A stretch of 64,000 bases of DNA from Obrimoposthia wandeli (Eukaryota), in assembly GCA_977020255.1 (NCBI GenBank), contig CDROCS010003392.1, positions 62,001 to 126,000 on the forward strand. Reading direction: 5' to 3'. Position numbers and translations under genes: made by a program. Positions within the stretch are counted from its first letter, which is position 1. Each line of letters begins with the position of its first letter. Below the pieces are notes generated by a model, which was not told the DNA's origin, ran no database searches, and worked only from the letters and a program-made list of their open reading frames with translations. Of this stretch, positions 10,284 to 64,000 are shown in pieces.

Positions 10284-10985
10284 TGTAAAAAGGTTTTCTA
10301 ACAGGTTGACAAGTAGGTTGTCTTACAGCACTTAGTTCAGACACGCTATAAATAACTATAACTCTAGACTAGCGTATAGATTAATGTTCTCCCTAGTAAA
10401 TTAAGGATTCGTTTTATGTTCCTTAGTTGAAGTTGTCACTAATAACTTTAATTTATCAAGACACAAACTTGGAATTGTTTACTAAAATACTATTCTTTAT
10501 CAAGACACAAAATTGAAATTGTTTACTGAATACGATTCTATATCGAGACATGAAATTGAAAAAGTTTACTGAATACTAAACACAAAATTGAAATTGTTTA
10601 CTCACCAAGATTTCTTTTCAAAATCGTTCCACGTCCGAAAAATTTCACTTTGGTTCGACTGATTTTGCCTCTGTCCAATTGATTTCTATGATATCCGATG
10701 GATTCCGTTTCTAGGTTCTATATAATAATTTTTTCTCTATAATCGAATTTTCCTTGCTTTTATTTGGCCAATTTTATCTGGGTAATTTGTGTTTCAAATG
10801 CTTTATAACCGACCTTGTGTTTCAAACTTTATCTCCGTGACTAATTTTCGACTTTGAATTATCTGCGACTTATTTTATTTTTATTAGTTTTTTAATTATT
10901 TTTAATTCTATTTAACCTTCAATTCATGGCTTACTATAAATAGTTATTATTTTAATTCCATTTTACAAATTTCCGTATCTTAACA
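10284..10985 (-). repeat. Putative 3' LTR of element A; left end uncertain (10284 or 10385)
   Basis: The minus strand starts TGTTAAG at 10985, then AAGGTCGGTTATAAAG (~10800-10816), donor TTG|GTGAGT (10605), and ~3.5 copies of a ~43-bp repeat (10455-10605). Confidence 0.55.
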
Positions 10986-11413
10986 AGTACAAAAAATTAG
11001 AGTCAAATACAAGGTCAGGTAAATACTTCTAAATCATATGTAAGTTTACGAAATAATTGAGACTGTTACAGATGATTGTGTTAATATTTCAAATGTTAAT
11101 CTGAATTCCAATCGAAGTATAATTGTTTATAGGTTTCTAAGATCCACTGGGTCCAAATTATTAATATTTAAAATGTTAATCTGAATTCCAATCGAAGTAT
11201 AATTGTTTATAGGTTTCTAAGATCCACTAGGTCCAAATTAAATTCGGAAAACAAATTTCAATCAAATTGTATTAATCGGTAAAATTGTCAATTTTAATAA
11301 TCATAATATCTTGTCTCCAGTTAATTTCTAAATACTACTGTCTATGTTGCATGTATACTTGTTGTTAAATAGGGTAGAACGGCAATGCAGGGGAGAGAGA
11401 CTGTCAGTCCACA

Positions 11414-12339
11414 TTATACTATAAGTTCTTGCTTTCTATGGAGGAAAATCTTTCGGGTCCATTGTGTGTCTACGAGGCTAGAGTGAGTATCTTTTTGTAT
11501 TTCCTTATTGAAATACCACGAGACCATTCGAACGAGTCCAGCTTGTTCTCTACGATTTATTTCTAATCGAATAGTCTGTGTTGCTCCTAGATCCACCGTG
11601 TGCGAAAAATCGTTTTTCTGCAGTCCTAAAACCTTGAGGTCGTTGGTTATTCCCGTTCCTACGAAAATGTTGTCTCTTAGCAAGGACTGAACTTGTTGTA
11701 ACACTTCGACAGCATCAGATTGATTTATTAACTTACGTTCGTTGAGGCCCGTTATTCTTGTCACATAATTCCTGATTCTGTCTCTGCTATTGCATTTTGT
11801 ATCCAAAACGATTTGTCCGCTTTTGCTCATTATAGTAATGCTGACAAGGGTGGGTTGTTTATTCATTTTTTACTACCATTTTACAATCGACAAAATATAT
11901 TTGAGGATTGTTGAGGATGATATTCAAATGGCAGACTTGAACGGGACTTTTGTTCTATGAATAATATGTTATGTCCACTCGACAAACGAATCATCAAATC
12001 GGGAGTTATTTGATGTCTCATCAACCGGTAAGAGTGATTTTGTAGAAGGACAGAGAAATGCTTGCTTTTCTTGTGTCTTAAAAATCCCCGGCCTTTTGAT
12101 ACATGAATCTCAATGTCCGTGCATGTAGGTAAGAATTTCATCAACTCAAACAGTCTTTGTTCTTTTGGCTTTTTACTATTTATGTTGAGAATTATGCTTT
12201 GTCTTGGGGTGTCTCTTAACTTGATGTTATTTGGAAGCTGGGTCTGATTGTCAAAAAGCTTTATTCTGTAATGGTTATGGAAATACCTTGTTGCAAACTG
12301 CCTTATTTTTCCATAAAGGAACTTAACCATTTTTGCCAT
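11414..12339 (-). pseudogene. Intronless accessory gene: unknown N-terminal region plus a REX4/ISG20-like DEDDh 3'-5' exonuclease, split by two +1 frameshifts
   Basis: ExoII VGTGITNDLKVL and ExoIII HSSLVDTQWT lie in ORF 11414-11866. The ExoI-like YFVDCKMV (DCEMV with E>K; Asp codon 11886-11888) lies in a third frame, joined via an A6 run at 11866-11871. IVLDT..N...IRNYVTRITGL also fits the family. Confidence 0.75.
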
Positions 12340-12860
12340 TTCTGGACGTTGTTCTGCTAACTGGACTGACTTCTCTCTTACCCTGCGGCACCACCTGCCA
12401 GTTCAAATGAGGATTCGTGCTTGTGGGTTCCAACTGTAGGGTATACAGATATAGTTAAAAAAATGTTGATTTTTACATGCAAATATAAAAATTGTCAACT
12501 GTCTATCAAATGAAATGTTCCTGTCAGTTTATTTGTCTCTTTGTTAATCAAAAGTCTGTAAATCATTTTAGTCTTTTATGTAACAAGTTTAAACAAACAA
12601 GGTATATAAATAAGATATGATTTTTTCATTCTTTAATATATATTCTTATTACTGGTGTTATCAATATCAATATATACATATCTATACTAATATATTCATT
12701 TTTTACCTATTCTTAATTTTATTATTACTATTTCAACTAAAGTTAATGAATATTAATACCCATTCATAAACGCATTTCCTCTCCAAAAACATGCCATAAG
12801 CCCAAACTCATTCTCAATTTTCTTTTATTTTATATTTTAATTTACTCACTGGGGATTTTA

Positions 12861-13169
12861 CTAATTTTCACACCCGGAATCATCACTTTCTCCCGGTTGA
12901 AATCCCATCAAACGATTAATTACTGATTTCAATGATACAAGAGAGTTTAACGCTTCTCTGAGTCGTCGTACTAATAATTCCTGATTTTTTTGGCTATGTT
13001 CTAATCTTTCAATTGCAACGTCAAAAGCATTATTGATTCGCTCACATTCCATTTCCTTGTCTTTCAAATGCGATCTCAGATTTATATTTTCTATCAATAA
13101 TTTATTTTCCCATTTCTTCTGTCTCTTATATCTTCTTCTATTAATTTGTACTATTTTGGAATTTCTCAT
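12861..13169 (-). CDS. 102-aa basic plus coiled-coil accessory ORF of element A
   Basis: Intact ORF with an RRRYKRQKK basic patch, then heptad-like NAFDVAIERLEHSQKNQELLVRRLREALNSLVSLK. Acceptor-like ATTAG lies 3 nt before the ATG. Confidence 0.5.
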   Translation of the reverse strand: MRNSKIVQINRRRYKRQKKWENKLLIENINLRSHLKDKEMECERINNAFDVAIERLEHSQKNQELLVRRLREALNSLVSLKSVINRLMGFQPGESDDSGCEN

Positions 13170-13339
13170 TTTCTAATATGTTAATAAGTTTTAAGTTCAT
13201 TTTTACTTTTTTCAATTTAAACTAAACACATACGCACTTTCCTTCGTCTACATTATAATTACTTTATTTTATGATTAGTTTTTATTTTAATATGTCAATT
13301 CATGTATTTTCTATGACAATTTTATAAAGATTTTTCTCA

Positions 13340-14600
13340 TTTCTGTTTATTGTTCTCAATTATTGTATTTATTGATATGTTAGATGAGTTTGAAGAGCTA
13401 GGTATGATGGATGTTATAAATGGGCCAGGAGGTTTACAATATTTAGTCCGATAATGTTTTTTGAAAATTGTGTTATTTTTTACTTTAATGACCTTCCATG
13501 TTATTTTAATGATTAATGTAAAGATTTCAATTATTATGATTGTTACAAAAATTTCCTTGTTATTTATATTTTTTGAGTATTTTTGTTTGCCAAAGTGTAT
13601 TTTTAGACTTTAATTAAATGATTTATAGGGTATTGTTTCTGTTGTTTTTAATTTTTGATTCATTTTTGTATTTTCTGTAATATTAATTTGATTTGTAATT
13701 TCATAAATTTTTGTTGTGAAGGTTGTAGCATGTGGTATTTGTTTTATGGTTGTTTCTTTGATATATTTCCTAATTGTAATTACTGACCACTTGCCACAAA
13801 AAATCGTAGGTTGATATAATTTGGATATTTTATTTCCTAAAATCCTTAAGTTTGTTAGATTTCTACAAGTCTCAAATTGTTGTCCCCATTGTCTATACAT
13901 TATTGGTTTGTTAGTAATTACACGTTCTCTATCATCCATAATTATTTTTTCTTGATATCTTATATTTTTTATAGTTATATTTGTTCTGATTTGTGATCTT
14001 TCTAATTGTTTTTCTGCGTCTTTCCAAAAATGATCATTATATCCTCTATATCTAATTCTAATGAGGGCTTTATCTAAGTTATCTATTTTAAGTTGAAATT
14101 CCCAATTTATCATGATTTTATGTTTTGTTATATATTTTACTGTCGTTTTAATATTGAAGCTAAGTATAAGTGAGTTTCTATAATTCTTTCATAGAGTGTT
14201 ATATTTTTTTAATTCGACTTAACTCTTATTTTGTATTGTGTTTCTGTTCTTAAAATGGTATTATATAATTTTTTGATTCAATTTTGTAAATATTTATGAT
14301 TTGATTTTTTTCAGATTGGATTATCTGAATTCTTCCTAATTTTTTTGTAAAGAGTGATATTTTTAACTTTATTGATGTGATTTCAGATATTATTGTAATT
14401 AGTCCAAAATCTTTTATGAGATATGTTGATGAGTCGTATTTATTTATTTTGTGTTTTACTATTAATTGATTTTCATTCAGGTTTATAGCGTTTACTTTCA
14501 TTAGGTTACTTTTTACTGCAAAATATATTACCAGTTACATCATTATTTTACATATTTCTTTTATTGACATTTTTATTGTATTTCTAGTTTGATGACTCAA
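13340..14600 (-). pseudogene. env-like ORF remnant of element A
   Basis: ORF pieces 14250-14501 and 13610-14113 follow integrase. Reading through the TAA at 13610 gives a hydrophobic anchor IFVTIIIEIFTLIIKITW and a tail. The env call rests on position and topology, not homology. Confidence 0.45.
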
Positions 14601-16260
14601 AATAGTCTTGTTTGGTTTTGTGAGTTTTTTATAGTTAACATTTGTAGAACAGTATTATTGTTAGTTGATCTTAAGTTATATTTGTGACTTTTTACTTTTG
14701 TATTTTCCTCAGGTATTTCTCGACATCTGTTTATATGTGTTCTTATTTCTTTTGATTTTGGTTCATTGTCGAGTTTAGCTGTTATGTTAGTTCCGTTGGT
14801 ACTAATGACTGTGTATGGTTTTTTGTATGGTTTTGATAATTTGTGTGACAATCCTACATTAATTTGTGGATTGTGAATCATTACTTTACTTCCGCTTTTT
14901 ATATTTGATGGCTTAGTTCTTCTATCATAATATTCTTTGTAATTCTCTTGTATATTTTTTACAAATAATTTAGCTTTTTCGAATGCATATTTATTCTTTC
15001 TATAATTTCTATTTTATATTCAGGTATTTCTAGGTACTGTGTAGTAGGTTGTAGTAATGTTAGGTCAATAGGCATTTGAGGATCTCTGAGGAACATAAGG
15101 TAAAAAAGTGTTTCTCCTGTAGATGCATGTACTGATGTTCTATATGCAAAAAGGCATAGAGGTATATGTAAATCCCAATCTGTTTTATTGTTGTTTGTGT
15201 ATGATGTCATCATATCTTCGAGGGTTCTATTATATCTTTCTACTAATCCGTCGGTTTGAGGGTGATATGGTGCTGTATTGATCTTTTTTATGTGAAATAT
15301 TTCAGCTATTGACGCTAATACATTATTTATAAATTCAGGACCTTTGTCAGTTAAAAATTTTCGGGGTGCACCGAAAGTAAAAATACTTTTGTCGACTAAA
15401 ACCTTCGCGATGGTTTCAGCCTTATGATCATGTGTTGGAAAAGCCTCTGACCATCTTGTAAAATAATCAGAAAATACTATTTATATTGATTTCCTCGGGT
15501 GTTTCAAGTAATGGTCCCATTAGATCCATGGCAACAGTTTCCATGGTGGCTGATGGATACAGTATTGGTTTTAAAGGTATTTTGTGGTACGTAAAGTGTT
15601 TATTCGTTTAAGACATATTTCACAAGTATTGCACCAATTTTTTACATCTTCTTTCATATCAATCCAATAATATTTTAAATTTAATCTCGAATGTGTCTTT
15701 TTTGTTGAAAGATGTCCTAAAGCTCCGTTGTGATATTGAAGGAGTAATTGACATTGTATTTTTTTAGGAATAACTAGTGAGTACAAATTTTTATCGTTTA
15801 AATAATGTAAAATATTGTTACTGAATTTATAACGAGATTCATGAATTTTCAAATGTTTTCTTAATTTTTCATCTGTTGGAACTTGATTGATGGTTATGCA
15901 TTTAGTTATTTGTTGTATTTCCGTATCTTTGCTTTGAAGATCGGTGATTACTTTTTCATCATATTTTGATATAATTATTGTGAAAAGATTTAATTCGGTA
16001 TCATCTAAAGTCATTGTGTTTATATCTTCTCTTATTCGAGATTGACAATCTGCATTAGCGTTTGAGTTACCTTTTCTATATTTTATCTCGATATCATATT
16101 TTTGAAGAATTAACGCCCATCTCATTAATCTAGATGTTGTATCTTTATGATTTAGTAGCCACTGTAGGGGTCTTTGATCGGTATAAACGTAAACTTTTCG
16201 ACCTAATAAGTAATGTTTGAAATGTTCCATAGCAAAACAAATAGCTAGGCATTCTCTTTC
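14597..16260 (-). pseudogene. Ty3/gypsy pol (RNase H, HHCC finger, DDE integrase), frameshifted
   Basis: Motifs HYLLGRK.YVYTD.RPL, SRLMRWAL.LQ.YD.EIKYRKG, YH....GH...C..C, VAMDLMGP, TDKGPEF, YHPQTDGLVERYNRTL and W..HIP.CLFAYRTSVHASTG. Confidence 0.93.
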
Positions 16261-16289
16261 TATAGTTGAATAATTGGTTTAGCAGAAAG

Positions 16290-16790
16290 ATATATATACA
16301 CGGTAAGAGAATGATTGTTACGACAATAGTGTGTACTAAAACAAGAAAATGTTTGCACGATTTATTGCCACATATTGAATTTGCTATTAATGCAACAGTA
16401 AATAATTTTTCAAAACATTCACCGTTTGAGGTCATTAATGGAAGAAAAATAACAATTCAAGCATCAAGTGAAACAACAAACAATAAAGAAAATATCATTC
16501 AAGACGTAAATAAGAACCAATAAATCGTAGCTGAAAATTTAAAATAGTTATATAATGAAAGAAGAGTGGAAAGGATATTTGAAGTAAATAAAAAGGTGCT
16601 TATTAAAAATGACCGAATTAAAAGAAGCAAGAATAGTGACTAGTATGAAGGCTCAAATAGAATAATATAATTTTTGAGTCCACAACAGGTGTCAATTTAG
16701 TTTCCAAGAGGAATCCTTCCCAGAAGAAACGAATGGCTGAAGAAGTGCAAATTTGAATAGTGAAAGTTATGTAATCATAAATATTTTTTT
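16290..16790 (+). mobile_element. Ty3/gypsy integrase C-terminal and 3'-end fragment
   Basis: LLPHIEFAINATVN..SKHSPFEVINGR. The 3' sequence matches the reverse complement of 27200-27420. Confidence 0.7.
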
Positions 16791-17959
16791 ATGAATTCGT
16801 ATGGATTCCTGTATAAAATAAATTGTGTTGTGTATTCTAACTCTTGAATTATGTCTAGAATAGAAAATATAACTGATAACTATAAAAAATATTGTCAACA
16901 CAGGTCACCTGAGGTTAATAAACTCAACTCTAGAGTTAAGTAGCCATTTTTAATTAACGTTTTCGGATTTTATCTAATGTTTTATTACATGTTTTGTAAT
17001 ATGCCCTTGGCCAGGATTTAAAATGTAGCCGCTTTTTATTCAAAATTTCAATTCATTGTTTGTTTTATTTCAACATCTGCCAGTGCAGGACCTCAACACA
17101 AGATTTGAAAAAATATATAAAGTCATTTTCAAAATAAATACTTCAAATATTTCACAAAATCGAAAAATTTGTATATTAAGTGAATAAAAGAAATCTGACA
17201 ATGAATTAAACTTTCATGAGATTTAAAATATACAAAGAAGTTTAAAATAATTCTGATTTGTAATTATCTTGATAATTTTATGTGATATACTCAATATGAT
17301 TTAAATTGATATTTCACAATAAAAACATATAATAAAGGAACAACAATAAATAATTATGCATAATAAAATGGTGTTTATTTAAAAAGGGGTTGAAAATAGT
17401 TTATGAAATAACTTGATATACAATTATTTAGATATATAAATTTTAAATAAATTTCTTAAAGAAAGTTAAAAATATGTATTAAAAAGTTTTCTGATATATA
17501 ATAAATTTTATTTTCAAACTATTTGTTTAATATTATTTAAAAATGTAAGTCAAATTAGTAAATCGTTTGCCTAACAATATTTCTTTCATAAAACTAAATG
17601 ATTAAAATAAATTAAATAATTATAAAAAACAACATATGACTAATGTAAATTTATTAATTATTTTCGTTTGACCGATTTAACATAAATTTTGGACAGTCAA
17701 AACTCGACTTCTGAATTAAACAACAGTAATTTTTAATAAATACCACGTGATTTTTTAAAGTATTAAATGACTATAAAATTACACCTATAAAGGTGTTGGG
17801 AAAACAACTAATAACCTTTTTGATTTAGGCTTTGAAGTTTATTATTATTTGCTGCGTCATTAATAAATCAAACGGTTAGTTATGATATTAATAGTGTTAT
17901 GAATAAAACCAATTAATTTTAATTAACCAGAAATGCCCACTGTCTGGCAGGTAAAATAT

Positions 17960-21287: not shown

Positions 21288-22900
21288 TGTTCTCACAGAC
21301 ATCCGGGAGTAGTTTAGAAGGTAGAAAACTGTTGATAGGCCGAAAAGACTTCCCAGGTGATGTATTAAATTCCCTTTAAATCTTGCTTCGATAACAGATC
21401 GAAATGACCCAGAAGTGCCCACTTGAGTCTTTCTTGCTTGGTCTATATTTGTAGTTAAATCCAAGATGATGTGGAGAACGATATATTTAAATTCTGCCGT
21501 TTTACGGATTGTCGAATATTAAAATAAGCATCCAACAACAATCCCCCTTGATCTCTAGATCACACATAGTCTTCTAAATAGGCCGGTCGCCGTACGGCCC
21601 TTTGTTGGCATTCTCTGGCACCATCGGAAGCGACTTCTTCTCCTACATTCGCAATTGTCTCTGGCCATTATGGTAGTGGTATTGGAATCAGTCTGACGTC
21701 GGCCACGTGTCAAGGAACTCCGTCGATTTCTACCTGCGTTGCTCCACTCAAACCAGTAATTACTCCCTTAGGCCAAACTGATGTGCAACACACATTGGGA
21801 GGTTTGACAAATACAGCTTGATCCATGTTGTAACCTGTAATGTTTTGAAATGTCGACAACTTTGGTTCAACGTTTGGATGTCACCATTCGTATATGAACA
21901 GTTCTTGCACAGGAACATAATTATCCTTGTTACTACATTTTGAAGAAACATTATACCGAAAGCACATGTCGCGGACATCTGCATCGCTTCTGGCAGCCAT
22001 TCCTTTGATGGTTCTGTGAACACGTTCCACTATCAGATTTCCTGATGGTCGATAAGCACATCGAAACACACACTTGACCTTCCATGATCCACAAGCGTTG
22101 TGAAATTGCCGTGACTTAAAGGTTGGGCTATTATCCTTCAACAACTCATCTGGAGGCCCATGTTCTCTGAAAACATCGGTCATGGCGGTAGTCACTGAAT
22201 ACTGTGTCTCATCATTGAGCAACTTCCATATTGTGAATCGGTTTGGTCCATAATCGATAATGGATAAGTAACACTTCCCTAAATAATGGGTTACATCACA
22301 GATCAATTGACTCCAATTCTCATCAACTGATAACTCACCATGTTCCCAGCGAATTGGTGCTGGATCTATACTTTTATATTTAAAATACGTTCTACGACAG
22401 CTGCTACTTCTTCTCGTTTCACATTGAGTTCAGGATACTGACATTTTAAAAGATACGTTGTTTTGTCAACGCCAAGATGATTCAGGTTGTGCACTGCCAA
22501 TATTTCTGCTTCATTGCCGATCACGCTACTGCATGCCACGCTTGCACGATTGAGCCACTTTTGGGGCACTATGGTAAGCTCATCAGCTTTGTTTCCTGCT
22601 GACTTTATTAGCCTGATATTAACAGTTAGTCTGCATTCTTCTATTATGGTTTTCAATAGATTCAGTCGCCTATGCGCTAATGCCGATCCAAGACCATGCG
22701 TTTTTACTCGTTTGTCTCCCGATGTAATTGACTTTACCCAGCCATGGACCGTAAACGAATCTGTATAAACAAGAATTCGCGACAGCCTCCATTTTATCGC
22801 ACAATTAAGTCCTTTGACAACTGCTTCTAACTCTGCCAAATTGATATGAGAGGAATTGGAGACCATCAGCATTTTAACATCCAACAATAATATTTCTATC
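21288..22900 (-). mobile_element. 5'-truncated Ty3/gypsy-type element (RNase H, integrase, PPT, ~250-bp 3' LTR)
   Basis: HINLAELEAV.KGLN.A..W and VYTDS.TV.GW; IIDYGPNRF, DNSPTFKS, AYRPSGN.IVERVHRTIK; pol ends RRPAYLEDYV. A canonical purine tract AGAGATCAAGGGGGAT precedes LTR TGTTG at 21540. Confidence 0.85.
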
Positions 22901-24130
22901 ATTATCTCTAAGACTGATAATGAAACATTTAAAAAAAAACGAAATGCCCAAGTGTATTTGTTAATTAAACTTATCTTCCAGATTAGGGGCATTTCTCGTT
23001 ATAAAAAAATTAATTGGTTTTATTCCTAACATATTTACAATTATAAAATTAATTATAAATGTGTAAAAGTTAAAAAAATGAATTAACTTGAAATAATAAT
23101 ACAGTGGATTAGCAAAATTACATAAATAATATTTATAACTTCATTATTTCTTCGTTTAACTTTAATTTGTATTATTTTTATATAAAATTATTTTATATAC
23201 ATTTATTTAATATTTAAATGATATAAATTCAAAAAAGATCAAAATATCTTATAACTTATAATGGATCTTATAATCATTTGATATATATTGTTTTAATAAT
23301 TATCAAAAATAAATAAATGCAAAATATTAAATAATATTTAATAAAATTAAACCATTCAATCTTTGATTGAGGTTAACAATAATTTGATAATGAATAATTA
23401 TAAAACTAATTTTTAATTAATCACTTTCAAATAATTTTTTATAATCTTCAAATATTTTTAAAAGTAGTTATAAAAATTCATTGTCTTCAGTGTCTGATGC
23501 CTTGCTTTCTTTTTAATTACAAAAGAAAATGATTATTTATTTTTAAACAAATAATCGAATTGGGAAATTATTTAGAGTTAAAATGTCTTCTAAATCACTT
23601 AATTTTCTTACGATTTATTTTATGTATAATAATGTAATTTTAAATTTTAAAATGAATGTGTCTACAATTTAACGCTAAACTAATAATATAGAGCTTTATT
23701 ATTCATTTACAAAAATGTCTACGTTTCAGTTATTTGGTCATGTTGACAAAATTCATTTTAATCATATTTAACTTAATATTCTCATTATACAATTTATTCA
23801 GTCAATTTTGAAATGTGTATATTACGTATAATATATTATAAAAAAATATTCTAAATAACTTATACTGCAAATCAAAAGCGGTTTCCTTGACCATTACATC
23901 CATGGTCAAACAATTTGTTCAGAAAAGCCAATTTAGTCAAAATTATTCTTTTTAATTGTATTGGATTTTTGAAGATGATATTTGAAATATTTATTTATTG
24001 AATTTTGAATTCATTTTTGATACATTTATTTAGTTTTTAGCTTTTAGTTTCCTGCATAATTTAAAATAATCACTTTTTATTAGATAATTATTGATAAATA
24101 CCACTGATTAATTCTCAAAAAATATATTTA

Positions 24131-26377: not shown

Positions 26378-37573
<11,196 letters not shown>

Positions 37574-43526: not shown

Positions 43527-45437
43527 TGTTAGGTTTAGGAATTGTTAAAAATTAAATAATTAATTGATTTTATAGTAAAACAAAAATCCTTGAAAGCAAG
43601 GTTAGAATTAAATAAATTTTAAAAATCGAAATTAAAATTATTAAAGTTAAAATATGATTAAATATTGAGACCTTGAAAGGTCGTGTGTAATGCGTTAAAT
43701 GTGTATAAAAATTAAAGGTCTCAAAAAAGAAAGGCCAGATAATAGATTGCCCCTAAAAAAGAAAGAATATTGAGAACACAGAAGCCAATTAAGAATAATT
43801 GAGCCCAGTGGAAAAGGAAAAATCAAAACGGGAACTTAATCCATTAGTGGAGAAATTGAAAAAGGAATATAATCCATTAGTGCCATTAGCGCCACTGAAG
43901 AAATCCCGAAGAATCCATCAGCGACATCGGCAATCCAGCGACTGCGAACGAGGACAGCCGCCATCATCTGGAGGTAATAGCACTTATACTAAGTGCAAAA
44001 TTATTAGTTTTGTAGACAGCCGTCATCGCCAGGATAGAAAAGATATAAGTGTGATTACAAATACCTGATTCCGCAAAATTTCCGAGAAAAGTTGAGAAGC
44101 AGAAATTGAGTGGAGAATAACAAATTGAGTCGGTGAGATTCATAAAAAGGAAAAAAGAAATTAATTATATACAGGGCAACCATCTACACCTAGAACGAGC
44201 AAACAGGAGACAGCAGATCGAAGGAAACGATAACTGAACTGCTACGAAATCCAAGCAGTAGCTATCCGACCACCTTGCCTACCGAGACCGGACTGCGTGA
44301 ATCAACCTGACGAAAATTACACGAGACGTCTCCGCAAAACCAGATCGAGTTCTATCGGACAATCCGCCGATCGATTCTATCTGCGCGAATCAACCGGAGC
44401 GAGCTTCTTCAACAATCTCTGCGAAGGAGGGTAAGAGTAGCGTGTGGGGAGAAGTTGATAGTATTTAGCAAGATCGAATTCTGAGTTTTACATATAAAGG
44501 AATTTTAAAAGAATTGTAAAAGAATATTGAAATATAAATTACCCCGTTGACTATTATATTAAAGAAATTTTAAAAGAGTTTTAAAAGAATATTGAAATAT
44601 AAATTACCCCGTTGAATATTATATTAAAGGAATTTTAATAGAATTGTAAAAGAATATTGAAATATAAATTACCCCGTTGAATATTATATTAAAGGAATTT
44701 TAAAAGAATTGTAAAAGAATATTGAAATATAAATTACCCTGTTGAATATTATATTAAAGGAATTTTAAAAGAATTGTAAAAGAATATTGAAATATAAAAT
44801 ACCCGTTGAATATTATATTAAAGGAATTTTAAAAGAATTGTAAAAGAATATTGAAATATAAATTACCCCGTTGAATATTATATTAAAGGAATTTTAAAGA
44901 ATATTGAACCATAAACTATCCCATTGGAATTTAATATTGATCACAGTTTTTAAAGAACATTGAAAGCTAAATTGGTTCAGTTATATTTCCTATATTTCTA
45001 GCAAACAACTGGCCCATCCTTTTAGAGCAACAGCTCTGTAAAACCTATAAACTTAATTTCCGTATTGGTTGGAGTAAAGACTCTAGCAACCAACTAACTC
45101 TATCTTAAAATCGATACGTGGTTCATCCTCACTTGTGTAGAGACTTACAGAAGTCTTAGGAATTTTACTGTAACTTTTTAGAAATACGTACGTAAACGTA
45201 TTGTTTTGTTTTAGTCTAGTGTGTTAACAATAAACGATTTCCTACATTAGAAAGCATTGTTCTAAACCCTTCAGATTAAGAGACATTGAAAAACAAACAC
45301 CTTCAGATAAGCATTGAGACAGGCAACTATAACATTAAGTAGGCCACAACCATCTTTAAGTCCTGCTTCTAAAAGAACTCACGTTGGGGCCCTCCGCATT
45401 CAAGAGGATCTATAAATTTCATATAGAAACCCCAACA
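43527..45437 (+). mobile_element. Solo LTR, 1911 bp, with 4-bp TSD TAAG
   Basis: TAAG|TGTTAGG ... CCCCAACA|TAAG. TATAAAA at 43704, donors at ~43974 and 44431, ~6.5 x 65-bp tandem array (44496-44910), AATAAA at 45229. Confidence 0.9.
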
Positions 45438-54519: not shown

Positions 54520-56800
54520 TTCTAGAGAATGATACTTGTTAAATTTGTATAATACTTCAAACTATATTAAGCACCAAATCTGCCCAAATATTAAAAGTTA
54601 TGCGATCGAGGTGATGAGTCAACTTACATTGGAACATGTATCGAGTTTCAAAGCAGCTAACAAACAAAGTTGGAGACCACAATCACATGATGAGCGAGTA
54701 CCTTCGAGCAGCGCATTCAAAATGAAACTTATCAAGGAGACTGAACCGATCCTTTCCTGTGATTTTTCACAATTTGATGGGATACGATATGCACCACATA
54801 CTTAAGCATGCGTCAAGTCAATTTCCTGATCTGAAGTATTTCTATCATTCCTAAATCGACAGAGAATTTCAAGTTATAATGGCCATCCTTAAAAGGGATA
54901 TAATTACTGAGCACAGATAGCATGCCATTAAATATATCCTTATTTAAATGAATTGCATTATCATAGAATAGATTTTCCGGTTAAATTAACTGCGATATCG
55001 AGATTTGAACACATGAATAACTTGAGAATTAATGTATTCAAATATAATAAAAATATCCCAGTTAATGTAATAGAGGAAGAAAAATTTAAAAATCCCTTTG
55101 TAAATGTGATTTAAAGGAACGAAAATGAGAAGACTCCAGTCAACTTAATTTGGCCCGAGCATAATAATAAACTCCACTTTGCTGCAATTCCCAATTTAGA
55201 TCGTCTTCTAAATTTAGATAATAGAGCTTTCCCATTTAGGATAAGGTATAAGTGGTGTCATATATGTTTGCATGGATTCCCACTCGAGCTCTCTTATAAC
55301 TAACATCTGATGTCATGTACACTGAATCCTGATGACAATACGTTACATAGCATGGTTAAGGAAAAGGATGTAAAATTCAGTGATTGAGTAAAATGCATAC
55401 CCTTTCAATTCAGGATGTATACGGATTTTGAATCAATTATTGCAATGCATTGCCAGTATGAGAGTATTTACCTACTGGCTTCGATCATGACTGGCATAGA
55501 CTTGGTTAATTTTAATTCTAGTAGATATTGTTGTTTGTGTGGTATCCAGTCTAAGTTAGTCAGATATCACGATCATGTTACGGGGCGATATCTGGGAGCG
55601 GTATGCAACCTTTGTAACTTTGACCGTCGACTCTCTAAAAAACCACGCATTCCTATCGTGTTTCATAATCTCAAAATATATGATTTGCATCTTATACATA
55701 AATATGCGTTGATACATTAAGCTCATGGAAAATTTTTATACACTTCAAACGTCGGAGAAATATTTAACTGCATTCTGAATTATAGATTCTCTGTAGTTTT
55801 TGAGTGCGTCTTTAAAATATTTAACGGCTTCTTTAAATGCATGACTAATTACACAGTCAGTGTTCTTAGCTTCGACAAATGATAATGGAATTTTTCCTCA
55901 TAAATTTGCGAAACACTTTGTCGATTTACAAAACTACAACTGAAATCCCACACATAACTGAATTTGATGGTGTACTTCAAGACTATAATGAGGTAATTGT
56001 CGAAATCTCCATAGAGTATATGCTTTATCATATGAAGTTGGACATTTATATTTTAGCTGATGTATTTAAATCCTTTCCTGTAAAATCTTTAGTGAAATAT
56101 GGACTAGATCTCATACTTTTATTTAGTTTACCTGGTCTTTCATGGGAAACGACAATTAAAACGTAAGATTAATGTCGATATACTGCAAGATCCCGTGATG
56201 TATCAAATGTATGATTATGGTATTCGCATTGGAATGAATTTTGTCAGCAAACTTCACGTTGTCAAAAATCAATCCGCGGAGATTCTGTACATCGACATTA
56301 ATAATTTGTAAAGGTGGGCGCTTACTCAACCTCTAGCCCAGGCTAACTTTACGTGGTTGTTTGATGTAGAATAGTTGAATGAGTTGATGACAGATTTAGC
56401 AACTGTTGTGACAGTTTCATCAAATGTTGGCTATTTGGTTGATATCGATTTCACAATCCCTCCCAATGTGCATGATACATTGGATGATTTTCCGGTGGCA
56501 CCCGTTCATCAATTTCCACTTAATTCTTAACTTAAGAAATTATCGTTAACTCACGAAGAAAAGTTGAATAATGAGATGCATTGGATGCTTCTTCAAGTAT
56601 AATCAAGTCACTCGAATTCATCGATCTATAAGCTTTAGCGTATTTTTACAATTGCAGATAACTTGGTAGCAGTGTTATTAGGAAAGTAGATTATTTGTCT
56701 CTATCGACCGAATTATATAGGTCAAACAGTTTCAGACATTTCCAAACTCAGAATGTATGAGCTTTAATATATTAAATTAGAGAAATATCGCAGTTGATTT
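54520..56800 (+). pseudogene. Second, longer Maverick/Polinton pPolB remnant
   Basis: LHY.RI.FPV...ISRFE..N.L.INVF, YHDHVTGRYLGAVCN.CN, IPIVFHNLK.YDLH, DVFKSF, LPGLSWE and YIDINNL..WALTQPL. Confidence 0.78.
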
Positions 56801-57083
56801 AATTGTGATATCAAAATCGTTGCTGGGGACACTTACTTTTTTTTGTTTACTGACAAAATATGGTAACTTTTCGCCTGTTGGCTTTGAATATAAGCTTCAA
56901 TTATTGGCGGCTTCGCCATTTTATTTTCTTAAATGTATTATTAAACTTGTCTTGGCTTCGTATGTGAAATCTATTAGTTGTCTGGAATCATCTCTAATAT
57001 TTACTTCAATATTGTTTATGGATAAGAGAGCAACTGGAAGATACATCGGTTAAACTATACGAATACCGATAACATCTCCAATT

Positions 57084-57356: not shown

Positions 57357-57903
57357 GAAATTTCACTCCACACACATGCAGTTTTTTAAAGGACAGTGAT
57401 ATCCGCTTCAGAGAGTGGGGTATATGTTGGGGTTTCTATACGAAACTTGGTATAGAGCCTCTTGAGTGCGGAGGGCCCCAACGTGAGTTCGATTAGAAGC
57501 AGGTCTTAAAGTTGGTCGTGGCCTACTTAGTTTTATGGTTGCCTAATCTCTTGTACTATCTGAAGGTATTTGATTTGATGTCTCTTAGTCTGAAGGGTGT
57601 AAAAACAACTTGTTCTAATGTAGGAAATTGTTTATTCAAAATTCACGTAACTAACACCACAATACGTTTATGTACGTATTTCTAAAAAGTATGATAAAAT
57701 TCCTAAAGGACTTCTGTAAGTCTCTACAAGAAGTGGGGATGAACCACGTATCGATTTTACGTTCAGGTGATTAAGTTTCTTAGGTTTAGTCTTCTCACTC
57801 AGGTTGGTTAATCTATAACGCAACTCTCTTAAATTTCTTCGCTCCTACTTCTTATCTCTAGCTAATATTTCTTTGTTCCTTACTCTCTCTGTGTGTGTTT
57901 GAC

Positions 57904-58338
57904 CCGAATTGTCTACTGTAGACAAGGGATCTCCTAAAAACCTAATTGTCAAGATGACAATGAAAACTTACTCCTAATTGTCAACTACGGACAATGAACG
58001 AACCGAATTGTCAGCTAGTGGACAATGAATCTTACCGAATTGTCTACTAGGGACAATGAATATTTATCCAAATTACCAACTAGGGGCAATGAATGAACCT
58101 AATTGTCAGCTAGGGACAATGATCTTACGGGAAAAAACGTCTGGTAAGTTTCCTAATTGTCGCTGGGGACAATGAATAAATGTCCGATCCTAATTACCAA
58201 CTAGGGGCAATGATTGTGGTAAAGAGACAACGATCCTAATTACCAGCTAGGGGTAATGAATTTATGTATTATTTTAAATGTAGAATTACCAACTAGGGGT
58301 AATGAATATATCCTAATTGCCAACTAGGGGCAATGAAT
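57904..58338 (-). repeat. Array of 12 stem-loop units (6-bp stem, 5-8 nt loop) separated by non-identical spacers
   Basis: Units start at 57904, 57941, 57973, 58003, 58035, 58068, 58098, 58152, 58189, 58235, 58281 and 58312. Confidence 0.9.
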
Positions 58339-58443
58339 GAACCTAGTCGGTGGTCTTACCAGTTACTCGCTGATTCCTAAACACAGTGGGATGTCCGCTG
58401 CAGTTTCCGTATGGAGCGCTTGCGAGAGGTTTGGTATGCACGC

Positions 58444-58920
58444 TTGATTTTTTTGGACTGAAAATACTTTTTTGGACTTGGAATATTTCTTTGGACTGAA
58501 AATACTTTTTTGGATTAAGAATACTTTTTTGGATTGAAAATACTTTTTTGGATTGAAAATATTTCTTTGGACTGAAAATATTTCTTTGGACTGAAAATAC
58601 TTTTTTGGATTAAGAATACTTTTTTGGATTGAAAATATTTCTTTGGACTGAAAATATTTCTTTGGACTGAAAATACTTTTTTGGATTAAGAATATTTCTT
58701 TGGACTGAAAATATTTCTTTGGACTGAAAATATTTCTTTGGACTGAAAATACTTTTTTGGATTAAGAATATTTCTTTGGATTGAAAATATTTCTTTGGAC
58801 TGAAATTATTTCTTTGGACTTGGAATATTTCTTTGGACTGAAAATATTTCTTTGGACTGAAAATACTTTTTTGGATTAAGAATATTTCTTTGGACTGAAA
58901 ATACTTTTTTGGATTGAAAT
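58444..58920. repeat. 19-20 bp tandem array (~24 copies) in LTR B
   Basis: GGACTGAAAATATTTCTTT and GGATTAAGAATACTTTTTT variants. Confidence 0.95.
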
Positions 58921-59716
58921 CCAATTACTCGACCTGCGGTCAGGGAGTTGATTCTGAATTTGTGATTGTGGATTGTCAACTATTTGGTTCTCCTTATATG
59001 CGGTTCTTCCTGTCAGTCAACGACAGCTGAAATGAGATTAAAAGTTATTTGACTGCACAAAATGTGCTTACCTTTTCTTGATTGACGGTTTGATTGCTGG
59101 AGAATCTTCTTCCTGTCAGTCAACGGCAGCTGAAAAACTAAATTTGATTTTACTGCACGAAATGTGCTTACCTTTTTTCTTCTTGATTGACGGTTTTAAT
59201 TAACCGTTTTTCTTTTTAATTATTCTTATTTTTTGTTCGTTTTTGTTAATTAACTTTAACTTTTATATATTTTCGCATAATACACGACCTTCGTGGTCCT
59301 CCTAATTTTACCCTAAATTTCACTAATTTTACTTCTAAAACTTAAATTAATATTTTAATTCAATTTTCGACCTTGCTTTCAAGGATTTTTATTTTAGTAT
59401 TTAATCAACTAAAATATTTAATTTTCTTAATTCTCAACCTTAACATACCTCGGGGGTTCCAAAAAAGTTACGTCCCCGGAACGTATCGATTTTACTTAAA
59501 TAAGCCTTTGGCTGTTGATTTTAGGTTCATCCTACAAAATCAATCATTCAACTTCAACAAACATGCCCAAAAACAATTTTTTCAAAATCTCGGTTTTCCA
59601 GTGGGAAACATAATATATAATTTGGAGCAAGTCTCAAACCATACATTATTATTTATACACAACTAAAAATTTACACACAAAATTACAGATTAGGAAGGAA
59701 AGAAGGGAGGAAAGTT

Positions 59717-60247
59717 TCAGTTATCGTATGTTAGGTCAATTGTTATTGTCGGCTGGTTCCGACTGGTCAGGTAGCGTAGAACCTGCTCCAGGGGAAGGTC
59801 GGGAAAGGACGGACTGTCCCCGTTGTACAAATGGAGTTGCTGGCTCCGGGTCAAATGCGGGCTGTCGATGAATAGGTCGAACTGCTGCCCGTTCATGGCA
59901 TGGCTTTCAATCCAGTGCCGTCTGGCCTGGAACCACGAGTGGCAGTCTCGACTAGACCGCCATCTCTCGCGGACGCCCAGTTGTGTGTCGCGCCGGCGTG
60001 CGAGACACACGTAGCATTGGCAATGGATGCCACCAATGCAGCTGGCAGGCGATCGGGTGCCTTTGTGTCTTCCGCGGCTCTGGAGTGTCCATTTGGCGAA
60101 GGGTGTCCGGCACAGTGGACAGGTGATTTGTCCGGAGGTTCGAACCTTGGTCCACAAATAGAGGCACTCCTCGTGAAATTTGTGACGGCAGCCGACAGGG
60201 GATGCTGATACCGCCCAAATCTTCTCCATGCATACGGAGCACAACAT
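59717..60247 (-). CDS. RING-H2 protein 3 (~176 aa), putative E3 ubiquitin ligase
   Basis: CSVC-x13-C-R-H-KF-H-EE-C-LYLW...CPLC, then C-x5-C-x-C-x2-C. Acceptor TTTTCTCATGCAG directly precedes the ATG at 60247. Confidence 0.85.
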   Translation of the reverse strand: MLCSVCMEKIWAVSASPVGCRHKFHEECLYLWTKVRTSGQITCPLCRTPFAKWTLQSRGRHKGTRSPASCIGGIHCQCYVCLARRRDTQLGVRERWRSSRDCHSWFQARRHWIESHAMNGQQFDLFIDSPHLTRSQQLHLYNGDSPSFPDLPLEQVLRYLTSRNQPTITIDLTYDN

Positions 60248-60588
60248 CTGCATGAGAAAATGACTCCTTTCAATTTGGGGTTCACCGTTCTCATCGTTAA
60301 TTTAAATTTTATTTCAAAACGAATCCTTAGTTATCTAATCCTACCGAGTTTTGTTTCGATTTTAGGCATGTTTACGCATTCACACTAAACATAAAAAATT
60401 GTCTTTTTTAGAAATTCAGTATAATAATTACAATTTCAGTTAAACATCATACATAAAAATGGTAATGGTCAATTTACAGTTCACAAGATTATATAATTAT
60501 GATTACAATTATGGTAGCTAATTTATCGCGGTATGCGATACACAGGGTAGTTCATGATGTCACGTTCAAGTCAGAAAGTTACCTTCGA

Positions 60589-60893
60589 TTATTGTTGGGG
60601 ATTGGGCTGGCCTGTGCTTCGCTCCTCCACGCAGAACGAGCACCAGCAATCGCAGATGGTTTTCCAGCAGTGTACGATGGGTACCACTGCTTGGAGGCTG
60701 TCTTGGTTGTACACGTAGTGTACTGAGAAGGTCGCTCTGCACATTGGGCAGGTTGGGAAGTCGAGGGGTTGTTGCTGTTTGCGATGGGGATCCACGTCTC
60801 GAGGCATTCGACGTGGAAAAGGTGGTCGCAGTTGTTGGGCTTGGTGTAGAAGTCCACGATGCTCTCGTAGCAGATGGAACATTCTCCAGACAT
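60589..60893 (-). pseudogene. RING-H2 protein 2, with one frameshift (real or assembly error) near 60765
   Basis: CSIC...CDHLFHVECLETW is in one frame and FPTCPMCR...CWKTICDCWCSFC in the next. Adding one C to the C4 run restores an ORF colinear with RING1. Confidence 0.8.
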
Positions 60894-60953
60894 TACTGTG
60901 GGAGGGTTGATGTTGAATTTGGGCTCGATTGAGGACTGGTGGTTGTGTGATCT

Positions 60954-61253
60954 TTACACAAAAGTGGTCTGATTTTGTCGATCTGACAAACAGTAATAAC
61001 ACCAACACTCTCCGAAATTCTTCCAGCAGAATACCACCTGTACATATACATCCCTTTGGTTGGGTTCTAACATGACGAATCTTGCGAATTGTCTTCTGCA
61101 TATAGGGCAACGAGGGTATGTTGGGTGTCCGAACTGTCCATAAGTTCTGATCCATGTCGATAAACATTCCTCGTGGTGTAAATGGTTGCAGGTTTCGGGT
61201 CTTGTTCTTCGTTCGGTTAGATCTTCTAAACATATTGGGCATTCTTCGGCCAT
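60954..61253 (-). CDS. RING-H2 protein 1 (99 aa), putative E3 ubiquitin ligase
   Basis: CPIC-x13-C-N-H-LH-H-EE-C-LSTW...CPIC, then CWKNFGECWCYYC. Acceptor TATTTAG lies 1 nt before the ATG. Confidence 0.88.
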   Translation of the reverse strand: MAEECPICLEDLTERRTRPETCNHLHHEECLSTWIRTYGQFGHPTYPRCPICRRQFARFVMLEPNQRDVYVQVVFCWKNFGECWCYYCLSDRQNQTTFV

Positions 61254-61376
61254 TCTAAATACATGATGATGATTAATTTCTACATGAGTTTTATATACTT
61301 CTACTATTTGTACAATCGCTTCTAGATATTTCTACATATTTCACACACTAATTTATCTACAACCTCCTCTGACTCA

Positions 61377-64000
61377 TCATATCTTGATGGGAGGCGGAGG
61401 TAAGGGTCGCAATTCCACTTCCTCCATGATGGGTGTGTCACAGCATCGCAATTCTTCGCATTTTCGTCGTATTCCTGGGCATACTTGACTGCCTTTTACG
61501 CACACGACTGTCAATAGAACCACTGCTGTTGATACTACGGCCATTCCAATTAGGGCATTGACTGCTGTTATTCCGCTGTCTGATGTTTTATAACCATACT
61601 TCATTTTGTTGTTTGTCGGTTCGAATGATATTTCCATGGGTTTTGATCGGTTTCCATGTATTATGTCCGATTTTCTAAAAATTGGGGGATTTGGGTGTTT
61701 TGTTTCTGATGGAACAGGTATTATTATTTTGGATTGGAAATGATGTTTGGGATCTAGTGGGATCGTTCCCCTCACTCTTGTCCTCTTAATAATTGTACTT
61801 TGGTTTCTGGGATTTAGCTCTTTTTCTTTCGCTTCTGTCTTTGTTTTGATCACTGTCGGTTTCTTGGAATGTCGTTTACTTTCGTTTACTTTTGCCTTCT
61901 TTTTGACTAGGATTGGTCTTTTGGGAATGATTTTCCTGGGTTTGATACTTATACCGTATCTGCGAAATCGACGGTTCTGGTATCTTAGAGTTATGTAGAA
62001 TATTTCACCTGTTATTATCATGATTATGGTCGAGGTCTCTGTAGAATTACTGGCAATTCGATTACACAGACATTCTGTGTTAAAATGTGGTACTAACATT
62101 TGGCTTTGGATTTCGAATCTGATTACGCCATCTGGGTTGGGACACATTACTGTCACGCTGTCAGTTTCTAGCAATATGAAAAATAACCTAACGGAATTCC
62201 ATACGGCTTTACGTCGTCTACCTGTGATCATAATCCTGTCGACAATTTTCCAGATGCGCTCATCTCTAGGCAATATTAATGACTTTGTTCGGATACTTTG
62301 GATAATCCGCTTCCTCTTTGATATTGTTATCCGTAGGTATAACACTCTTTCATGATGCAATAATATTAAATTGTAAACGGGTGTATTTTGGTCGATTTTT
62401 ATTCTGACCTGTCGAATGACATACAATTTCTGATCGATATTGTCAGTTGCTGACGTCTGTAGATGAATGTCTACTACGTGATTTGTTTTTAGTAAGGGAA
62501 TTTCTATGTATATTGCCCGTATAACGTCTTGTCTCCATTTACTGATCATGATCTCATAACTAGCCTTGGTAGTGGTGATTTGTACGATCAGCATGATTCC
62601 TATGATCGTTCGATTCCTAAACTCAGGAACTTCACTGAAACAAGTCAAATTACTCATATAGTACGGTCTTTCCTCAATATGTTCATATATCGTTGGCTGG
62701 TATTCTGGTGCTGGTTCATCTAGAAATGGTGGTCTTGGTATAATTGTGTTGAATTTTTGTAAGTTCATTTGACCTGTTCGTCTTGCGAGATCATGACGTT
62801 TTTTTTTTGATCTCGACTCTATCTTTGAACAACAAAACAAGATGAGTAATATTAATATTATAAATCCAATGATCAGTGCGAGTATTGGATTAACCAATTC
62901 TAGAATACCATAACGTACTGCTGGTATTCCTTTACTCTTGATGGTTAATATTTTAAATTTGTGTGCACTTTGGTTGGACATGTCACTGAGAAGCACTATT
63001 TTAGTTTGTCCAAATATGTAGTCTTCACATGTGACAACACTAATTCCATAATGTCCATTAAGTGTTATCATTTCGGTCGCTGGGACTATACACATTCGTC
63101 CTGGACATCCTTTTACACACATGATCATCACGGCTCTACTGTGGGATGTCTTGATTATTTCTAGGGTGTTGTCTAGATTTCTCAAATGTAAATTATATTC
63201 GGATAGTGTCATCAATTCGGCTTTACTGGTTGGCATGGCTTGCAGTACCAATCCAATTACTACTCCATAAATCAATCCTTGTGCAACGGTGCACAGGGCC
63301 TTGACCGACCTTTTGCAAAGCGTTTTAATTATCAATCGTTTGAGAGATATCTGTTTCTGATTGGTTCGTTTTATTGTCTGTCGTTGTTTTGACATCTCCT
63401 CGATTCCATCTCGTCCGATAATCAACTGTACCGGTTTTCCTTGTATCATCAACTTTCCGAATCCATTTTTGGCGGACAAGCATGTTTTATGTCCTTCCAT
63501 CGTTTCAATTATCACTCTCTTACTTCCATACTCACGTGTTTTGATGACATCGCCGTCGAATATATACGTTGGTCCTTTTGTATCAGCATCTTTTTGTATT
63601 TCCTTTACAACTCGTTTACTTCGCTTGCATCCGGCGAATGTTGTTGATATTCGGTCAAGTGTGCGCTGTCGGTCAGCTTCGTAATCTATTCGAAATTGAT
63701 TCAGTATTCTGTTTTGTGGGTAAAATATCGCTTCATTTACTATGTTGTCCTCGATCCTTTCGTCTAGATACACAAGCACTTTGTTTGTTGGTCCATTTGG
63801 TCTTTTCATCTTTACAAACTGAAATCTTTTACTGTCGGTTCTCATAGATCGAAGACATTTTCGGATGATCCATACATCAATTAGTCCTAACAACACTAAT
63901 AACATCATCAGTGCCGGTGTATGGTACTTTATGGTGTAATTGTGGATTTCGTTGAACCAGGAACTATTTCCGTGGTTGGAGCCTATTTCCTGTGCTCCCG
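61377..64000 (-). CDS. env-like membrane polyprotein (>873 aa, open to the window edge)
   Basis: The frame stays open upstream of the annotated Met (GAQEIGSNHGNSSWFNEIHNYTIKYHTPAL, two N-glycan sequons). It has five hydrophobic segments and no introns, and lies upstream of the RING cassette and LTR. Confidence 0.75.
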   Translation of the reverse strand, partial: GAQEIGSNHGNSSWFNEIHNYTIKYHTPALMMLLVLLGLIDVWIIRKCLRSMRTDSKRFQFVKMKRPNGPTNKVLVYLDERIEDNIVNEAIFYPQNRILNQFRIDYEADRQRTLDRISTTFAGCKRSKRVVKEIQKDADTKGPTYIFDGDVIKTREYGSKRVIIETMEGHKTCLSAKNGFGKLMIQGKPVQLIIGRDGIEEMSKQRQTIKRTNQKQISLKRLIIKTLCKRSVKALCTVAQGLIYGVVIGLVLQAMPTSKAELMTLSEYNLHLRNLDNTLEIIKTSHSRAVMIMCVKGCPGRMCIVPATEMITLNGHYGISVVTCEDYIFGQTKIVLLSDMSNQSAHKFKILTIKSKGIPAVRYGILELVNPILALIIGFIILILLILFCCSKIESRSKKKRHDLARRTGQMNLQKFNTIIPRPPFLDEPAPEYQPTIYEHIEERPYYMSNLTCFSEVPEFRNRTIIGIMLIVQITTTKASYEIMISKWRQDVIRAIYIEIPLLKTNHVVDIHLQTSATDNIDQKLYVIRQVRIKIDQNTPVYNLILLHHERVLYLRITISKRKRIIQSIRTKSLILPRDERIWKIVDRIMITGRRRKAVWNSVRLFFILLETDSVTVMCPNPDGVIRFEIQSQMLVPHFNTECLCNRIASNSTETSTIIMIITGEIFYITLRYQNRRFRRYGISIKPRKIIPKRPILVKKKAKVNESKRHSKKPTVIKTKTEAKEKELNPRNQSTIIKRTRVRGTIPLDPKHHFQSKIIIPVPSETKHPNPPIFRKSDIIHGNRSKPMEISFEPTNNKMKYGYKTSDSGITAVNALIGMAVVSTAVVLLTVVCVKGSQVCPGIRRKCEELRCCDTPIMEEVELRPLPPPPIKI

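Follow-up and report, generated by a model that had tools for sequence, protein, structure and literature searches.

A swappable 3′ cassette of short open reading frames in two gag-env-pol families of a probable Burro-like Ty3/gypsy clade

Do two neighbouring retroelements that carry different genes in front of their 3′ long terminal repeats (LTRs) belong to one lineage with exchangeable cargo? The question is raised by a 64,000-nucleotide stretch of Obrimoposthia wandeli DNA (contig CDROCS010003392.1, G000:C3392:62001-126000; hereafter the window), which lies in a 1.35-Gb AT-rich animal assembly. A sequence-only reading of the window had described two elements, A and B, with the common order env-like open reading frame (ORF), short acceptor-led ORFs, LTR, and had proposed a single lineage with interchangeable cargo. 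We checked both window elements and then read further copies from the same genome tile by tile. The observation is partly confirmed and its interpretation partly supported, on grounds other than those first given: A and B are probably two high-copy families of one Burro-like clade, in which a pair of LTRs encloses a gag-env-pol polyprotein with a glycoprotein B (gB)-type env and a variable tail, followed by a selected, swappable cassette of short ORFs. Directly shown are the layout, the common clade of reverse transcriptase, RNase H and integrase (RT-RH-IN), purifying selection on the cassette ORFs and, in family A, replacement of the cassette as a block.

The start of the B LTR (59445), used as a query, returned direct LTR pairs 21.1-21.6 kb apart on five contigs (best 40 of 3055 candidates scored), so that B measures about 23 kb (23.3 kb); the paired LTRs are 96.5-99.8% identical. 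Pfam annotation of 18 ORFs from three copies gave the order gag zinc knuckle, env, protease, BIR, RING, second protease, RT, RNase H, integrase, dual-specificity phosphatase, degenerate second phosphatase and tail, with a gag-to-tail span of ~16.4 kb. The env (Monjiviricetes_fusion, PF24664; E 2.9e-93) lies upstream of protease and RT, the BIR (PF00653) and RING (PF13920) domains lie between the two proteases, and natural open frames of more than 4,000 codons pass through env in some copies. Sampling the genome with the PF24664 profile returned 30 loci, all 30 of which are family B. The window holds the last 873 codons of the polyprotein (61377..64000, −), a post-integrase and post-phosphatase tail with four hydrophobic segments; by coordinates, its frame continues past the window edge into an ORF of 1297 amino acids (aa) encoding integrase and phosphatase. 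The DSPc phosphatase has an intact HCxxGxSR motif and, together with its degenerate copy, follows the integrase inside the polyprotein (contig positions 126002-129892); a literature search found no paper describing a phosphatase inside an LTR-element polyprotein.

Behind the B polyprotein stand three RING-H2 ORFs that are 30-37% identical to each other: ORF 1 (60954..61253, −; PF13639, E 5.4e-10), ORF 2 (60579..60893, −; PF13639), which is frameshifted in the window copy and has a ratio of nonsynonymous to synonymous substitution rates (dN/dS) of 0.11, and ORF 3 (59717..60247, −; PF13639), which adds a Cys-rich C-terminal part. RING ORFs are found in 12/12 B 3′ ends (7 covering all three, 5 partial). 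They are followed by a conserved CCCC-n-AGG motif where a polypurine tract is expected (59446..59470, −) and by the 2.0-kb 3′ LTR (57425..59445, −), which contains a TATA box, two AAG/GTAAG donor-like sites and 19-bp and 30-bp arrays.

Family A is smaller (14.6-15.2 kb). In five copies its LTR pairs are 98.7-99.9% identical, start with TGTTGGG, end with AACA and contain no AAGGTCG; the primer-binding site (PBS) lies one base from the LTR. Again the PF24664 env (E 9.4e-67) is located between gag and protease/RT, and the scanned A ORFs gave no Pfam hit for BIR or RING. The window contains only an internal fragment of this 15-kb gag-env-pol Ty3/gypsy family, truncated at both ends (11381..16275, −), with 92.8-93.3% identity over 4.9 kb to copies that have intact LTR pairs. 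The fragment comprises the end of RNase H and the integrase, with stops and frameshifts (14597..16275, −; PF17917, PF17921, PF00665), and a post-integrase tail (13337..14596, −), which is broken in the window copy and part of the integrase frame in other copies. These are followed by cassette ORF 1, a 102-aa coiled-coil protein with a YAG (TAG or CAG) just before its ATG (12861..13169, −; dN/dS 0.16-0.19 between copies), and by cassette ORF 2, an N-terminal domain plus an ISG20-like DEDDh exonuclease (11381..12433, −; PF00929), broken and 3′-truncated in the window. In many other copies the nuclease is one ORF of ~375 aa; 150 scored copies are 87-91% identical, with the frame open in nearly all, and the best PDB match is ISG20 (E 7.7e-10). 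The cargo difference between the window elements, a coiled-coil ORF and a DEDDh exonuclease in A versus three RING-H2 ORFs in B, was thus correctly seen. The two ORFs taken for env-like proteins are instead in-frame post-integrase extensions; of the proposed gene order, the short acceptor-led ORFs before the LTR stand, but env belongs between gag and pol, upstream of the protease.

The A tail features a signal-like segment, an ectodomain and a transmembrane segment, with two hydrophobic segments in all. That it might be a type I membrane protein with an Ig/FN3-like ectodomain is a lead only, prompted by an FN3 lead at 0.89 and a low-confidence beta-sandwich model (best Z 9.0). Mean predicted local distance difference test (pLDDT) scores were 38 for the full-length model and 45 for a shorter one, and the shorter model had no Foldseek hit at E 0.001. 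No A-tail homologue was found at E 0.001 among 1.84 billion representatives, and phmmer gave no match at E 0.01 between the A and B tails or between either and 23 public tails. Among these 23 public relatives, 22 have a post-integrase tail of at least 290 aa and 21 have hydrophobic segments in it; some tails contain ankyrin, Ig or extra protease domains, and the tail itself is therefore a variable position. Within family A, two tail alleles ~50-56% identical occur on integrase backbones that are 92-98% identical (L138 versus L064, L076 and L130). Between A subfamilies, similarity of the true LTRs is limited to the initial 200 nt and a TATA box embedded in a palindrome (L056 1835-3195, L060 2097-3162); the LTR body is exchanged as well.

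The relationship of A and B was assessed on an RT-RH-IN alignment. From 222 candidate proteins, 197 had a single alignment of at least 600 aa, and 93 were kept after thinning the non-env rows at 70% identity; trees were calculated with FastTree (93 rows) and with IQ-TREE under LG+G4 and C20 (36 rows), with support of the Shimodaira-Hasegawa (SH) type only. All three trees place A and B in one clade with SH 100, not in unrelated clades, and the 16 public members of this clade all carry PF24664; the position of env before the protease was confirmed in 10/16 public clade members checked. Over RT-RH-IN, A and B are 55.7% identical; either is 50-62% identical to the 16 env-bearing public members and at most 47% identical to rows outside. 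Two other PF24664-bearing proteins fall outside the A-B clade. One gag-env-pol protein of the clade (P0039) is labelled Flavobacteriaceae in its source and is most likely eukaryotic DNA in a bacterial bin.

How variable the 3′ slot is within a family became apparent from 20 A-type junctions sampled from those listed, 14 of the common and 6 of the variant form. A nuclease ORF was present at 17 of them, 13 of type 1, one of type 2 and three of type 3; one additional type-2 copy was met by chance (two contigs in all). The three nuclease types are 36-39% identical in protein, and all five DEDDh residues (D-E-D-H-D; ExoI D-x-E, ExoII D, ExoIII H..D) are kept in each. In type-3 copies, the coiled-coil ORF 1 is also replaced, by an unrelated coiled-coil ORF. 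The surrounding backbone is nearly constant: one type-1 copy aligns with the three type-3 copies at 97-98% identity as far as 2190 nt before the LTR, immediately behind the stop codon of the polyprotein, and no alignment is obtained from there to 271 nt before the LTR. Compared with a type-2 copy, it shows 97% identity through the coiled-coil ORF as far as 1750 nt and no alignment until 36 nt before the LTR. Accordingly, the breakpoints lie between ORFs. Integrase plus tail has a dS of 0.043 where nuclease dS is saturated. With three cassette types on 97-98% identical backbones and breakpoints between ORFs, the cassette of family A has been replaced as a block. Some A-type junction motifs with an LTR start have no A internal sequence upstream, or only a stub of it (L121, L122, L132, L137); these are possible non-autonomous derivatives.

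In family B, RING3 identity among copies ranges from 50 to 100%, falling to 50-63% in three divergent copies; in the two of these whose pol was compared, pol identity is 88-100%. Pairwise dN/dS, estimated by simple counting, was 0.08-0.30 for the nucleases, 0.16-0.19 for the coiled coil, 0.11-0.41 for the RINGs (0.21-0.22 for RING3) and, for comparison, 0.09 for B pol; no value could be obtained for two pairs that were saturated and one that could not be aligned. The cassette ORFs are therefore under purifying selection. Different cargo does occupy the same slot in other subfamilies, and the two families are members of one clade, as had been expected of a lineage with interchangeable cargo; however, exchange is shown among alleles within a family only, with none seen between A and B in the loci examined.

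A separate question is which LTR the window fragment of A belongs to. The segment 10286-10985 had been taken for it, but matches to the A cargo stop at 11381 (0/40 non-self matches extend past this position and 34/40 end exactly there), none of the 16 A loci examined (15 copies) has a match to 10286-11077, and the LTR that A really has starts with TGTTGGG. The segment represents the 5′ portion of a solo LTR from a third family, C, which is related to B (10286..10985, −). It is cut off at 10286, ~320 bp before its real end; the full 1.4-kb form ends in GAAACCCCAACA, and other C solo LTR copies are flanked by 4-bp target duplications (TACT, TAAT, CTAT). Between the C LTR region and the A fragment lies an unrelated 303-bp repeat fragment with an 80-bp tandem duplication (11078..11380), which has low multi-copy depth and no match in any other locus compared; one contig runs on with different sequence at 11379. 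On the other side of the A fragment, 16276..17783 (+) belongs to an older composite repeat, which includes an integrase remnant on the plus strand and usually lies ~430 bp from a C solo LTR: in 9/9 best non-self loci the C LTR adjoins DNA matching 16276 onward, at a distance of ~430 bp in eight. Depth is ~50-190 outside the 11381-16275 borders and in the thousands inside. The window "element A" is thus a mosaic, now decayed, that combines a fragment of A with the solo LTR of a family related to B. Among the matches listed, covering contigs over 9800-17000, no contig bridges the junctions 11380/11381 and 16275/16276, and the 10286-16275 borders may include a local misassembly. The old composite itself (window 16276-17783 with 10286-11077) has been amplified to at least 10 copies, several of them near Maverick-like ORFs by eye (L040-L043).

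The LTR motifs that had been used to link A with B consequently compare B with C. TGTTAAG is present at both starts (10985 and 59445, −), but alone it is not above chance (7 found, 14 expected). AAGGTCG before TATAAA, at 10816 and 59291, is above chance (3 found versus 0.12 expected); yet the window AAGGTCG at 10816 is not the positional homologue of the one in B, as a ~390-bp segment with the homologous box is missing from the window C copy. The third match marks a solo LTR of B/C type with a 65-bp tandem array, a TAAG target duplication and an aligned 3′ end (43527..45437, +). Both ends of the C LTR can be aligned with those of the B LTR, and behind C-type ends comes the 8-nt spacer plus TGGTG that is also seen in B (86 pattern matches versus 0 control; in all, 48 candidate junctions and 86 LTR-end/PBS sites of family C were located). 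Thus, the shared LTR motifs link B to C, not to A. The donor-like sites and the tandem arrays further in were confirmed (43-bp at 10452-10578, 19-bp at 58447-58919). Two further LTR 3′ ends of B/C type are present at 41032-41434 (−), which seems internally deleted, and at ~251-1485 (+), which bears a 56-bp array; each LTR family has a tandem unit of its own (19, 30, 43, 55, 56 or 65 bp).

A true short-motif link between A and B is found at the 3′ junction. Neither LTR start in the window is preceded by a purine tract, as had been noted; since 10286-10985 is not the LTR of A and is cut short, this absence is trivial there, but the true A and B elements both lack a tract, with no more than 4 consecutive purines in the last 20 nt ahead of the 3′ LTR. 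In its place, both families have ACTTT..CCCC-n-AGG directly before TGTT. The CCCC-n-AGG junction pattern gave 1449+664 matches versus 2+0 control for A and 2834+1494 versus 7+8 control for B (forward counts include overlapping duplicates). A hairpin before the 3′ LTR was considered as a common structure and dropped: although inverted repeats can be seen, five A/B-type junctions gave folding z-scores of 0.81, -1.37, 1.60, 0.18 and 0.21. At the other end of the element, the PBS of B and C lies 8 nt from the LTR end (L013 2897-2940 and 86 sites) instead of 0-3, which implies an unusual cDNA end. Trimming of this end by the nuclease was ruled out, as the offset occurs in B and C but the nuclease in A. 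ARAGORN found no tRNA on the loci examined; the B PBS presumably resembles elongator tRNA-Met.

With respect to expression, a TAG or CAG ends 0-2 nt before the ATG at 10/10 cassette starts of A and B, against a background of 13/137, 24/229 and 70/1115 ATGs (6-10%), and nine of the ten starts are the first Met of their frame. The two AAG/GTAAG sites of the B LTR lie downstream of its TATA box, and the C LTR likewise has a consensus donor there.

Burro-like elements are stuffed with apoptosis and ubiquitin domains, and several published systems resemble A and B in part. Both families have the protease-RT-RH-IN order, a TG..CA LTR pair, a PBS and a short target duplication, as expected of Ty3/gypsy, and lack its polypurine tract. 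In the available part of its description, the planarian Burro (GYPSM1) is a giant Ty3/gypsy element with one ~5,000-aa polyprotein, an in-frame env with mononegavirus fusion protein homology between gag and protease, BIR and RING domains, tandem repeats, accessory ORFs and thousands of copies (PMC6431247). B is like Burro in layout and domains (giant polyprotein with in-frame env, BIR, RING), and A is like a smaller relative by layout, without a BIR or RING hit. Both are shorter (23.3 and 14.6-15.2 kb versus more than 30 kb for Burro; PMC6431247), and B differs in its two proteases and in the DSPc phosphatase with a degenerate copy after the integrase. The Burro text, as far as available, mentions an upstream accessory ORF only (PMC6431247), whereas B has three RING-H2 ORFs 3′ of the polyprotein; the 3′ ORFs of Burro may already be shown in Grohme 2018, its extended data or Repbase. 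MATH, BCL2, ankyrin and dUTPase domains gave no Pfam hit at E 0.01 in the scanned B and A ORFs, which are part of the ORF pieces (the published Burro calls were made with HHpred), and no named Burro protein is among the 120+120+39 matches listed. One Burro-like element is reported, in the part of the account available, to protect planarian stem cells (PMC13465017).

The GAG-ENV-POL errantiviruses, according to the available text, have the same gene order and HSV/gB-type env class as A and B (PMC13524379), in both of which a gB/Monjiviricetes-type env lies between gag and pol; this arrangement is described there as polyphyletic. By eye, the env of Smed_errantivirus_1 in the supplement shares GMRFIKK..CG..Y.TNY.G with A. 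The words "accessory", "splice", "polypurine" and "PPT" do not occur in the main text of that article, which describes neither 3′ cassettes nor a missing purine tract in the portion consulted. Bdelloid rotifer LTR elements have a variable ORF3 slot downstream of pol, first mistaken for env, that holds enzymes including a DEDD exonuclease, with modular, shared cargo; the available account gives a DEDDy (RNase D-like) nuclease in a single, near-neutral ORF3 (PMC5408684). Unlike this, the A nuclease is DEDDh (His-type ExoIII) and ISG20-like, and A and B have two or three separate acceptor-led ORFs, which are under purifying selection, block swaps that could be mapped, and a genuine env in another part of the element. 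Complex retroviruses (lentiviruses, spumaviruses, foamy-like fish endogenous retroviruses) have short, lineage-variable, acceptor-led ORFs before the 3′ LTR, as A and B do (PMC6431247, in part). However, A and B are Ty3/gypsy elements, not Retroviridae, their slot follows the pol tail, not env, and there is no homology; the likeness is an analogy, not membership. We found no prior account of a swappable 3′ cassette, the nearest being PMC6431247, PMC13524379 and PMC5408684 in their available parts, with most subscription papers and Repbase outside the search. A and B would thus represent a variation on a known type of element: a clade resembling Burro in which several short ORFs form a selected, swappable 3′ cassette and the polypurine tract is missing.

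How might such a cassette work? The ORFs would be translated from spliced subgenomic RNAs, with a donor near the 5′ end and an acceptor directly before each ATG, each RNA placing one small ORF first. Cassette blocks could be exchanged by template switching between co-packaged RNAs, an established part of retroelement biology. Judging from their domain types, the products would serve as accessory proteins whose targets are the host cell or the nucleic acid of the element: the RING-H2 ubiquitin ligases of B, beside its internal BIR-RING and phosphatase, suggest an action on host ubiquitin and death pathways, and the ISG20-like 3′-5′ exonuclease of A may trim or destroy RNA or DNA ends. A and B would have captured their cargoes independently at one and the same position, and these cargoes would not be allelic to each other. 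A broader proposal, which we regard as conceivable but somewhat doubtful, is that an invertebrate Ty3/gypsy clade independently evolved the plan of a complex retrovirus. It would combine an exchangeable, alternatively spliced accessory cassette (RING ligases, ISG20-like nuclease) with a variable, decoy-like cell-surface protein at the pol end, together countering host defence; plus-strand priming would start from a non-purine signal and, in B and C, minus-strand priming from a PBS offset by 8 nt.

Several observations weigh against a single clade with spliced, swappable cassettes. A is not the sister of B and nests among elements from metagenomes; named reference clades are absent from the tree, whose outgroups are top hits of A and B; and the two families differ in LTR sequence and PBS. 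Three of the 20 sampled A-type junctions have no A cassette upstream; no RING was found in A slots and no nuclease in B slots in the loci examined, and the families sampled with internal regions are two only, A and B. RING1 dN/dS rests on 6 versus 4 changes, and the RING3 start is the second Met of its frame, chosen by eye. Two true A LTR copies were scanned and have no consensus donor, the only candidate overlapping the PBS, and cassette splicing and function are predictions from the DNA sequence.

The missing A donor would suit a model in which the ORFs are real and selected but expressed through spliced-leader trans-splicing or internal promoters, not cis-splicing. Spliced leaders occur in flatworms and nematodes, and a YAG directly before ATG fits a trans-splice acceptor equally well; we nevertheless consider this model unlikely, given the consensus donors just downstream of the TATA box in the B and C LTRs. 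Far less probable still is a slot filled with passively captured host gene fragments or decaying sequence of no use to the element. Retroelements do capture cellular RNA, and rotifer ORF3s show no clear departure from neutrality in the available account (PMC5408684), but a passive slot is already contradicted by dN/dS well below 1 in every computable cargo comparison, by catalytic residues kept across alleles 36-39% identical and by the nuclease frames that stay open in nearly all of the 150 scored copies. The model closest to the sequence-only reading, sister families with the order env, short ORFs and a common LTR type that exchange cargo with each other, draws on window LTR motifs that are real and above chance and on the shared clade. 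As worded it is refuted and barely credible, since the LTR is not that of A, env lies upstream of the protease, the families are not sisters and no cargo crosses between them. Equally hard to credit is that the mosaic at 10286-16275, and perhaps the cassette swaps too, are assembly chimeras: the unbridged junctions fit, and scattered frameshifts in many young copies could be base errors, but type 3 recurs with the same border in three contigs and type 2 in two, and the layout of each family is supported by many copies whose LTR pairs match. The reading of A and B as two families of one Burro-like clade with selected cassettes swapped within a family remains the best explanation, and a probable one.

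The rest of the window contains host genes and other repeats. Host exons encode an NAD-binding dehydrogenase (6646-7224, −; in a G+C-rich patch, 57%), a Smad1/5-like protein (26378-28750, +; MH1, E 2e-30) and a phospholipid-translocating P-type ATPase (49621-51564, +). A broken RNase H (RVT_3 type), H2C2 finger and integrase remnant (21881-22998, −) represent another retroelement class, a Tc1/mariner-like transposase remnant was recognised by eye (24550-25175, +), and an inverted repeat pair (46547-47792 and 55419-56844) is 80-90% identical and ~8-10 kb apart.

For annotation, these elements call for caution: membrane ORFs behind pol are not env, and an LTR beside ORFs in repeat-dense DNA may not belong to them. 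That both families have CCCC-n-AGG and no purine tract suggests that a step of reverse transcription is still to be explained. What this genome adds is a natural experiment, in which near-identical backbones with different selected accessory cassettes are present in thousands of copies. With these cassette variants, one could test how accessory genes benefit an invertebrate retroelement and which factors of the host they target.

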